Shown here: piece by piece, positions 32,101 through 33,319 of the stretch
Numbering within the stretch: position 1 is the stretch's first letter
Layout: the number at the start of each line of letters is the position of its first letter
NCBI GenBank assembly: GCA_965649765.1
Contig: OZ287748.1
Span: forward strand, 58,032,001-58,096,000
DNA: 64,000 bases
Origin: Bispira polyomma
Taxonomy: Eukaryota
Direction: 5' to 3'
The notes under the pieces: generated by a model
Databases searched by the model: none
What the model was told of the DNA's origin: nothing
Seen by the model: the letters and a program-made list of their open reading frames with translations, nothing else
Position numbers and translations under genes: made by a program

Positions 32101-33319
32101 ATGTTAGTTAAAAGATGAAGAATTATTAGTTGACCGGTAGTGATAATCTTGATGGTAATATAATATGATTTACTTTAATTGTTGGAACACGAGTTAAGTG
32201 TGATTTTTAAATTAAGTTTTTTTTTTGAGAATACAGTCACTGACACATGGAAGTGCCTACACTTTAAGTTTTGAGATAAAACAATCTGACACAAGAAAGT
32301 GTAGGCTATATTCTAGGTAGTTTATTTCTCTGCTAACAGCAACATTGAAAGGTATTATTGCTTAAAACAACACACAAGCTTTTGATGAGTTTTGGATTAG
32401 TATTGTCAGAGTATTTGTGATCCACTGTTATGGACATTTACTTTTATTGATTTTATAAAGTGGATTACAGAATGACTGGGAGCAATTAGCTGATAGAATT
32501 TCTATGTTAGGTTCTACATTAATGACGTATATTATCTTGTTGTTTTTTTTACAGATGATAAAGCCACCATATCTCCAGATAATTTACAGGAGGCCAAATT
32601 GGGGCTCATTAATGACACAGAGTGTGCTGCTGACAGAGACATAGCTAATGAAGGTTTATATGAGGACGTTATGTTGTGTGCTGGTTACACACATGGGTAC
32701 ATCACAGTCTGCAATGTAAGTTTATTACAGTAATGAATTCCAATAAATCAGAATATTAATGACAGTGTCCCTTGATGTGTACATATAAATATTATATGTT
32801 CGTTTTCTTTACATTACAGTCTGATTCTGGGTATATTTTCCCTGTACCAGGGAGACACTGGGTAACCCTTGGTATGTAGAGATATACATTATACATTAGC
32901 TTACTTTACATTATAGTAAAATTATGTGTGTATGTTCCCTGTACCAGTGAGGGAGTAGGGGACCTTTGGTCTGTACAGAAAATTATTATACATTACTTGT
33001 CTTTACATTACAGTCTAATGATGTGAATATGTTCTCTGTACCAGGGAGACAATGGGAGACCTTTGGCCTCTACAGATATATATAATAACTTAGTTGTCTT
33101 TACAATGTTTGTCTAAATCTGTGTTTGTTTTCTCTGTACCAGGGAGACAGTGGGGGACCCTTGGTCTGTAGAGATAAGAGAAATGTGTGGACACTGGCAG
33201 GAATCACTAGTTGGGGTCCAGTGGATGCCTGGACTTCTTGTAAAGGAATCAGTGTCTATACAGAGGTGTCTGCCTTTGCCAACTGGATACAAGACACTAT
33301 TGGCGGATACTGTGGATAG
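13860..33319 (+). CDS. Type II transmembrane serine protease (cytoplasmic tail - TM - 6x LDLa - SRCR - S1A peptidase), 16 coding exons, about 739 aa
   Basis: Exons 13860-14166, 17906-17947, 18761-18910, 19329-19493, 21048-21149, 21872-21979, 22604-22717, 23335-23457, 24338-24476, 24902-25030, 26406-26452, 27096-27207, 30035-30212, 30849-31014, 32555-32715, 33143-33319. All introns are GT-AG, phases are compatible, total 2220 nt without internal stop; catalytic triad TAAHC / NDIA / GDSGGP intact. Confidence 0.88.
15010..16600 (-). mobile_element. Decayed L2 LINE fragment in intron 1
   Basis: [26 protein letters not shown] and [14 protein letters not shown] motifs on the minus strand. Confidence 0.7.
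15703..15983. repeat. Near-perfect 138-bp tandem duplication
   Basis: AAATTCAATTTTGTCGGGA...AAAATACTTTA starts at 15703 and at 15841; copies differ by one T. Confidence 0.9.
16631..16955. mobile_element. MITE (probably Harbinger/Tourist-like)
   Basis: TIR GGCCTTACAGACTGCCAACTACACGACAC vs reverse complement of GTGTCGTGTAGTCGGTGGTTTGTAAAGCC; TSD not clear. Confidence 0.65.
17748..17858. repeat. Nested inverted repeat (hairpin), possibly a Crypton-type non-autonomous remnant
   Basis: CCACTTGATGGGTGAAGA / TCTTCACCCTTCGAGTGG outer arms; ATATATGTCAC / GTGACATATAT inner arms. Confidence 0.6.
17906..17947 (+). CDS. TTSP exon 2 (42-nt stem micro-exon, [14 protein letters not shown])
   Basis: tctcttttacacAG acceptor, ACAG|GTAATG donor, phase 1-1; skippable without frameshift. 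Confidence 0.55.
18020..18290 (+). mobile_element. tRNA-derived SINE, family A (possibly Meta-domain type)
   Basis: Alignable with 33930-34190 (AGTGGCTCAGA..CCACTT.AAATG.CGGTC..GGCTAAAGAA..TTAGGGGA.TGA.AGTTACTGG). Confidence 0.6.
18761..18910 (+). CDS. TTSP exon 3: LDLa 1
   Basis: [40 protein letters not shown], phase 1-1. Confidence 0.88.
19329..19493 (+). CDS. TTSP exon 4: Thr-rich linker and LDLa 2
   Basis: [35 protein letters not shown]. Confidence 0.88.
19895..20072 (+). mobile_element. tRNA-derived SINE, family B (V-SINE-like)
   Basis: B box GGTTCAAATCC; tail ATATGACCTAAGCTG..AAAG.GAC.TAA..CCCAACT shared with the inverted copy at 23598-23820. Confidence 0.6.
21048..21149 (+). CDS. 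TTSP exon 5: LDLa 3
   Basis: [34 protein letters not shown]. Confidence 0.88.
21872..21979 (+). CDS. TTSP exon 6: LDLa 4
   Basis: [35 protein letters not shown]. Confidence 0.88.
21992..22179. mobile_element. pogo/Tigger-like MITE (188 bp); partial second copy starts at 33598
   Basis: TIR CAGTAGAACCCCTATTATCTGAAC / GTTCGAATAATAGATGTTCCAGTG; TA on both sides. Confidence 0.75.
22604..22717 (+). CDS. TTSP exon 7: LDLa 5
   Basis: [35 protein letters not shown]. Confidence 0.88.
23335..23457 (+). CDS. TTSP exon 8: LDLa 6
   Basis: [36 protein letters not shown]. Confidence 0.88.
23598..23820 (-). mobile_element. tRNA-derived SINE, family B
   Basis: Minus strand starts GGGGTCCCAGTGGCCTAGTGGTTAG (A box) and contains GAGTTCGACTC (B box). 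Confidence 0.7.
24338..24476 (+). CDS. TTSP exon 9: SRCR N-terminal part
   Basis: [21 protein letters not shown]; phase 1-2. Confidence 0.8.
24902..25030 (+). CDS. TTSP exon 10: SRCR middle
   Basis: Phase 2-2, open frame [20 protein letters not shown]. Confidence 0.7.
26406..26452 (+). CDS. TTSP exon 11: SRCR end
   Basis: [15 protein letters not shown]; phase 2-1; homologous to paralog exon 63086-63135. Confidence 0.75.
27096..27207 (+). CDS. TTSP exon 12: activation site RHK/ILQG..WPWQISL
   Basis: Phase 1-2; WPWQ motif. Confidence 0.88.
27175..27682 (+). repeat. About 85-bp tandem array derived from the exon-12 3' end and donor site
   Basis: CTGGCCT.GGCAGATCTCAC..A.ATATAACAGGT units at 27175, 27296, 27382, 27467, 27553, 27634. 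Confidence 0.85.
27683..29206. mobile_element. Non-autonomous DNA transposon with TACGG..CCGTA ends and 6-bp TSD (IS3EU-like)
   Basis: Perfect 21-bp TIR TACGGAAGAGTATAAGGGCCA; TSD ATTATG at 27677-27682 and 29207-29212; palindromic subterminal repeats ATCTCGATTTATCGAGAT (66-bp unit on the right arm). Confidence 0.85.
27930..28190 (+). repeat. Minisatellite (33-45 bp units) inside the MITE
   Basis: AAACAGTCATAG.GGTCAAAAGTAGTTAATCAG repeated about 7 times. Confidence 0.8.
29597..29830 (+). mobile_element. Short Helentron/HINE-type remnant
   Basis: 3' end GGAGGTAT-GCACTC-TACT-GAGTGC-CATTCTAGT (hairpin plus CTAGT). Confidence 0.5.
30035..30212 (+). CDS. TTSP exon 13: catalytic His
   Basis: [19 protein letters not shown]; phase 2-0. 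Confidence 0.92.
30849..31014 (+). CDS. TTSP exon 14: catalytic Asp
   Basis: [25 protein letters not shown]; phase 0-1. Confidence 0.92.
31371..32049. mobile_element. Harbinger (Tourist-like) MITE, 679 bp
   Basis: TIR GCCCCAGTCCCACC / GGTGGGACTGGGGC; TTA TSD at 31368-31370 and 32050-32052; ACG/CGT-rich interior. Confidence 0.88.
32555..32715 (+). CDS. TTSP exon 15
   Basis: [32 protein letters not shown]; phase 1-0. Confidence 0.9.
32750..33175 (+). repeat. About 97-bp tandem array filling the last intron, made of exon-boundary copies
   Basis: CTGTACCAG acceptor-like units ending at 32850, 32947, 33044 and 33142 (the functional one). Confidence 0.85.
33143..33319 (+). CDS. TTSP exon 16: catalytic Ser and stop
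   Basis: [28 protein letters not shown]. Confidence 0.93.

Follow-up and report, generated by a model that had tools for sequence, protein, structure and literature searches.

The last coding intron of a predicted membrane-anchored serine protease gene of Bispira polyomma is filled for most of its length by tandem copies of its own 3' end together with the beginning of the exon that encodes the catalytic serine. As judged from the DNA sequence, this array is a real and old mirage, that is, a repeat of an already known type, in an intact protease gene. The explanation that we favor, to which we give a probability of about 0.8, is an old tandem duplication of the catalytic-Ser acceptor in which the upstream copies are likely silent, decaying passengers and the last copy is likely the one that is spliced.

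The Host Gene

The window analyzed comprises 64,000 nucleotides (positions 58,032,001-58,096,000 of contig OZ287748.1, here G000:C1) of a 1.04-Gb genome and lies inside a cluster of related proteases. The exon model of the window gene, referred to as W, was assembled manually, using splice signals and alignment to the paralogs (Table 1). The reading frame contains AAHC, NDIA and GDSGG, corresponding to the His/Asp/Ser triad in a trypsin domain, and Pfam PF00089 was detected on two of the three W exons scanned. The stem includes six exons that we take to be of LDLa type and a degenerate part that is presumably SRCR-like, both labels being based on the appearance of the motifs. An AATAAA signal is located at 33735, downstream of the stop codon. 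The original prediction that the product is a membrane protein agrees with the presence of a type II transmembrane exon at the start of the model, the predicted protein beginning with a short tail and a hydrophobic anchor.

In type II transmembrane proteases of the S1A family the catalytic domain is tethered to the stem by a disulfide bond between Cys1 and Cys122 (chymotrypsin numbering). Both tether cysteines are replaced in W, one by Arg and the other by Ala (27098-27100 and 30936-30938), and they are kept at 8/8 and 12/12 of the paralog sites examined. That both are lost suggests that the gene is live and that its activated domain would leave the membrane. The residue located six positions before the catalytic Ser (32679-32715), which we take to be the specificity site, is Thr instead of Asp, so that the W enzyme is predicted to lack trypsin-like specificity.

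Other features were observed in the window. The protease-domain exons of a further paralog (L012) are located at 56263-60900 on the minus strand, with a plain acceptor before GDSGG. Long open frames at 46680-49259, also on the minus strand, resemble what we take to be a reverse transcriptase followed by a tyrosine recombinase, an arrangement known from DIRS-type retroelements. A single W intron contains two arrays of a 66-bp unit in inverted orientation (27709-27850 and 28737-29183), one of them with 99% identity between copies.

Table 1. Features of gene W, its last intron and the neighboring pseudogene (window coordinates unless indicated; PWM, acceptor position weight matrix score with percentile among real acceptors).
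Feature	Position	Strand	Description
Host gene W	13947..33319	+	Predicted type II transmembrane serine protease; intact ORF of 696 aa (710 with optional small exon)
Transmembrane exon	13947-14166	+	Basic residues followed by a hydrophobic stretch; reading frame continuous with the other exons; exon link predicted
Second mirage, donor side	27237..27680	+	86-bp unit, 5.2 copies; end of activation exon plus donor
Penultimate exon, protease domain	32555..32715	+	Donor GT at 32716; 153/161 identical to paralog A
Exon-end 14-mer	32698..32711	+	Resembles 32810-32823
Last coding intron	32716..33142	+	427 nt, phase 0, before GDSGG codons
Non-repeat intron start	32716..32768	+	Common to pseudogene paralog B (blastn); ends at 7-nt microhomology 32761-32767
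Partial fifth unit	32769..32786	+	Exon-derived tail minus acceptor; 89% identity across 28 nt with the tail of the first decoy of B
Decoy unit 1	32787..32884	+	Acceptor end 32850; GDTG then stop; donor-like GTs 32862, 32872; PWM 4.0 (13th)
Decoy unit 2	32884..32981	+	Acceptor end 32947; TGA at once; without branch-point motif; PWM 0.5 (lowest)
Decoy unit 3	32981..33078	+	Acceptor end 33044; GDNGRP... then stop at 33114; Ser to Asn; PWM 3.0 (5th)
True acceptor unit	33079..33142	+	Most U-rich tract; without extra AG at -31; PWM 6.7 (39th)
Last coding exon, catalytic Ser (GDSGGP)	33143..33319	+	Stop 33317-33319; Pfam Trypsin 4.9e-11
Paralog B	1-12000, plus G000:C1 58,007,000-58,032,000	- (window part)	Pseudogene, head to head with W

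Structure of the Array

The 97-bp unit claimed to recur across the last intron was recovered by TRF (period 97, 4.2 copies, 32769-33176, 75% matches, no indels), with approximately 374 of the 427 nt of the intron consisting of repeat. Each unit spans about -63 to +34 around the acceptor, corresponding to the last 63 intron bases and the first 34 exon bases. All four acceptor copies, which end at 32850, 32947, 33044, and 33142 (distances of 97, 97, and 98), share the 3' end CTGTACCAG, and a partial fifth unit without an acceptor is located upstream of them. The authentic unit forms the edge of the array, as only this last unit runs on into the full exon, and three CAG acceptors precede it. The acceptors had been described as near-identical, which applies to their last 9 nt, the sole stretch invariant across the four units, but overstates the likeness of the units, which are identical pairwise at 72-77 of 97-98 positions (73-79%).

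The reading frames that follow the decoy acceptors are broken, as had been proposed: the first reads GDTG and stops at 32863, the second stops immediately (32948), and the third encodes 23 residues beginning with GDNGRP, whereas the true acceptor opens the frame GDSGGP...YCG with its stop at 33317. Each decoy acceptor is preceded, at a distance of 31 nt, by an additional AG (32819, 32916, and 33013), the true unit lacking such an AG, and every unit holds G runs derived from the copied Gly codons. Recursive splicing was considered and rejected, as no decoy AG is directly followed by GT. The AG at 32819, which would give an SDSG peptide, was taken as chance, given that a stop follows after 19 residues and that the peptide is not common to the other units.

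The unit was also claimed to contain a copy of the end of the previous exon. The exon-end 14-mer matches unit 1 at 13/14 and unit 3 at 12/14 positions, but units 2 and 4, like paralog A, at just 9/14. As this 14-mer-like site is not followed by a donor and cannot be extended, it does not belong to the unit in general. Its position is -41 to -28, where the intron sequence is TACAT-rich and can be aligned to paralog A with its single acceptor. A 13/14 match was reached by 33/2000 shuffles of the whole exon, 1/2000 shuffles of its last 40 nt, and 1/113 other 427-mers, so that the resemblance may be due to chance or be an old remnant, and is not plainly chance. The idea that the unit copies an entire exon-intron-exon junction was rejected, with a mere 27 nt between the 14-mer and the AG and the donor absent. 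In another paralog (L004) the same intron is filled by exon-end copies.

Repeats located in a cluster of similar paralogs, next to a pseudogene (B), might result from misassembly, or W itself might be a dead pseudogene. This reading is extremely improbable. The copies differ at more than 20% of sites, the intact ORF retains His, Asp, and Ser, and contigs from three sequencing runs, which are unspliced and of DNA type at W, span the array with 0 differences (at most two samples, possibly the assembly's own), indicating that the array is not an assembly error. Among these DNA contigs, from at most two samples, a single allele of the array was found and no allelic bubbles were seen across 9 kb at W. 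A few contig joints near the array were rejected as copy-number alleles, since they match paralog B or A sequence.

Paralogs and History of the Array

The close relatives A and B are located just upstream of the window, B extending into it. Paralog A is intact over the 12 exons compared and has one acceptor in an intron of 289 nt, the 3' end of which aligns to every W unit at 77-87%. Paralog B shows several defects: the catalytic His is replaced by Tyr, one exon is interrupted by about 8 kb, an LDLa exon is triplicated, and frameshifts are present. Its intron contains a degenerate duplicate of the penultimate exon's end, an A-like intron body and two decoys, both reading GDSG followed by a stop. 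The number of decoys is thus 0 in A, 2 in B, and 3 plus a partial unit in W. Since the pseudogene shares decoys with W, the array is likely old, and the in-frame TAA common to W decoy 1 and both B decoys indicates that it either arose before W and B separated or was spread by conversion. The branches of a tree built from the eight units had little support (bootstrap 26-68), and the order of duplications therefore rests on shared substitutions.

The start of the W intron is B-like and then jumps, at the 7-nt microhomology, into a decoy tail. We infer that the duplication occurred before W split from B (or was transferred by later conversion) and that more copies then arose. A deletion of approximately 435 nt at the microhomology would have eliminated one acceptor together with the old intron body and the duplicated exon end, so that only part of a fifth unit remained. 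The array had been regarded as a possible snapshot of intron growth by boundary duplication. The boundary duplication is supported and corresponds to a mirage minisatellite (PMC3087553); remodeling describes it better than growth, as the original intron body, kept in A and B, was apparently deleted.

The position of the intron before the GDSGG codons is ancestral by sequence comparison within this genome, where an AG directly precedes the codons in 26/28 loci with a GDSGG exon (29 matches minus L028, which was left out because it is a partial copy inside the locus of B). Intron gain by tandem duplication was rejected on the same count. A and B also carry a second copy of the 3' half of the last exon past the stop (G000:C1 57,980,072-57,980,164 and 58,007,128-58,007,220), which W lacks.

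Which Acceptor Is Used

Over the 34 exon bases contained in the unit, the last copy matches paralog A at 33 positions and the decoys at 29, 26, and 27 (Fisher p = 0.026). The last exons of W and A differ by four synonymous and two nonsynonymous changes. The dN/dS ratio between W and A was 0.43 over 12 exons (p = 2e-6) and, for the last exon taken alone, 0.14 (p = 0.023). Some of this last-exon conservation may be due to gene conversion, given that dS is 0.31 in the 5' exons and drops to 0.10 for the last two, and that the last exon of B is equally conserved (dN/dS 0.13). A matrix built from 77 acceptors of the same genome scored the true site best of the four, the decoys falling at the 0th-13th percentile of real acceptors (Table 1). 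The matrix is a weak guide: intron AGs at 32819, 33013, and 33075 outscore the true site of W, and in B and L005 the decoys equal or beat the true sites. The last copy would be chosen because its tract is the strongest of the four and because no other copy continues into the complete terminal exon. The distal site may also be favored by G runs in the units, as in CBS 844ins68, although this is a lead only.

The decoys might nevertheless leak, with copies that compete weakly and reduce the active enzyme by a constant, unregulated fraction as a tolerated cost. Decoys 1 and 3 have retained the CAG, a tract and, at -27, a motif resembling a branch point, and the donor-like sites in decoy 1 could make a poison micro-exon of 11 or 21 nt. 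The true unit, alone in having lost the AG at -31, also has the highest U content, and both features would be consistent with compensatory strengthening. Against these points, loss of AGs might be expected if leakage were costly, and none was lost in three W and two B decoys; the low matrix scores of the decoys argue in the same direction. Leaky splicing is considered unlikely. Leak through decoys would yield a truncated protein, and as proteins made through the decoys would be missing the catalytic Ser and the final 58 residues of the protease domain, among them two disulfide partners, misfolding is likelier than a stable dead enzyme. If the predicted 3' UTR is intronless, a stop in the last exon of W would have no junction downstream. 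Two protein searches for the spliced product, with 6 and 2 candidates, gave no scoring match, which is weak evidence.

Conservation of the decoy acceptors bears on another proposal, in which selection maintains them and certain cells use them to switch the protease off or down by regulated unproductive splicing. Acceptor bases -9 to -1 show 0/27 changes in the three W decoys (p = 0.005-0.02) and the exon parts 20/102 (Fisher p = 0.007), in both cases for a window picked post hoc; p was 0.009 for 12 nt, 0.065 for 20 nt, and 0.21 for such a run anywhere. The AG is kept in all W decoys, with a neutral chance of about 0.42. The invariance is a weak hint of kept decoys. Over -20 to -1 the conservation is non-significant (p = 0.12) and the same as in pseudogene B, with 6/60 changes relative to A in the W decoys and 7/60 in three units of B (p = 1). 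Every decoy destroys the catalytic motif, as a switch would have it, but this loss is expected of any freed exon copy and the 97-nt period breaks the frame anyway. Moreover, the exon parts of the decoys diverged freely, the pseudogene carries the same copies and the close paralog A manages without decoys. Published mirages, in the portions of those reports consulted, lack aberrant mRNA, and in both these and CBS 844ins68 the authentic, distal site is the one spliced. Altogether, a regulated switch appears quite improbable.

Frequency of Boundary Copies

Copies over the same Ser-exon acceptor were detected in 5/28 loci (W, B, L005, L011, and L015), the last three having their own decayed copies of the acceptor and exon start upstream of the GDSGG exon. 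They represent at least three independent origins (W plus B, L005, and L011 plus L015), which would favor the switch. In 13 paralogs, local copies were found at 5/13 Ser-exon acceptors and 7/121 other boundaries (12/134 in all), indicating that boundary copies are common in this family; boundary detection was automatic, so that a few boundaries are doubtful, the Ser acceptor of B was picked 31 nt too early, and two known copies were missed. Among controls, copies were present at 1/25 P450 acceptors and 8/126 random flank points. Because none of the 30 best-ranked P450 loci had introns, the P450 control drew on 40 exon pieces of lower rank, and the 25 pieces meeting a crude acceptor criterion were used; the random-point background excludes the five positive loci and L028. 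The excess at Ser acceptors has a raw p of 0.002, but this enrichment vanishes without the ascertained case: leaving out W and B, p = 0.17 (origins) and p = 0.38 (versus random points). That mirage copies at the Ser acceptor were repeatedly recruited as selected decoys, forming a repeat-encoded dimmer on a membrane protease with an untethered catalytic domain, is a rather remote prospect.

A second mirage of W lies on the donor side of the activation exon (Table 1). The GT donor is kept in some of its copies and lost in others, and A and B have fewer copies. Younger mirages were observed in related genes along the same contig: a 62-bp acceptor array at the activation exon of L011 (84-94%; G000:C1 about 57,953,950-57,954,110), a 75-bp donor array in L018 (87-96%; about 58,187,550-58,187,900) and a 59-bp donor array in L004, in which copies lost the donor by a 6-nt deletion (about 52,016,080-52,016,340).

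Relation to Known Systems

Mirage minisatellites were described in amphioxus as tandem duplications of the 3' end of an intron and the start of the exon, in which splice signals are kept and regular splicing was observed by RT-PCR (PMC3087553); PMC3902484 agrees in the sections available. The genes concerned are Adh3, troponin C, the globins BflGb6 and BflGb9, and PGBD5 (PMC3087553, PMC3902484). From what these sources present, the W array resembles them in its head-to-tail copies of intron 3' end and exon start (compare BflGb6), in a unit size within the 10-160 bp reported, in the splice signals kept in many copies and in the occurrence of acceptor-side and donor-side arrays in one genome. 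In contrast to BflGb6, whose units are 81-100% identical, the W array is older and more decayed. It is also located at the catalytic-Ser exon of a protease and was apparently cut by a later deletion. Length polymorphism and normal splicing were demonstrated in amphioxus, whereas the W array is known from DNA alone.

In human CBS 844ins68 the distal of two duplicated acceptors is used according to the passage available in PMC2630376 (the text says "donor"), while PMC1802585 refers, in the part consulted, to a 3' splice site and credits G runs for the distal choice. As in W, an intron/exon acceptor junction was duplicated and the proximal copy was damaged. The CBS case consists of one recent, polymorphic 68-bp copy in an internal intron, with experimental splicing data, in contrast to three old copies in the last intron of W. 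Romano 2002 is reportedly the primary paper on this insertion.

Human F7, also a serine protease gene, carries in intron 7 a 37-bp VNTR, a boundary-spanning minisatellite whose extra splice sites are described as functional but silent in the available text of PMC1557585. The donor-side array of W is similar to it; in F7 the authentic site comes first, whereas in the Ser array of W the authentic acceptor comes last. Tandem genomic duplication of sequence bearing splice signals has been related to intron gain, as far as the accessible part of PMC3265369 goes. Sequence of this kind was duplicated in W too, but no new intron was produced, the position being ancestral.

Implications

In the literature consulted on amphioxus mirage minisatellites, which was available in part, no report of a mirage acting as splicing control was found; if regulated use of the decoys were true, the W array would represent a mirage as splicing control. 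Under the favored reading of silent, decaying copies, the three paralogs would illustrate the life history of a mirage: none in A, two copies in B, and three copies followed by a deletion in W.
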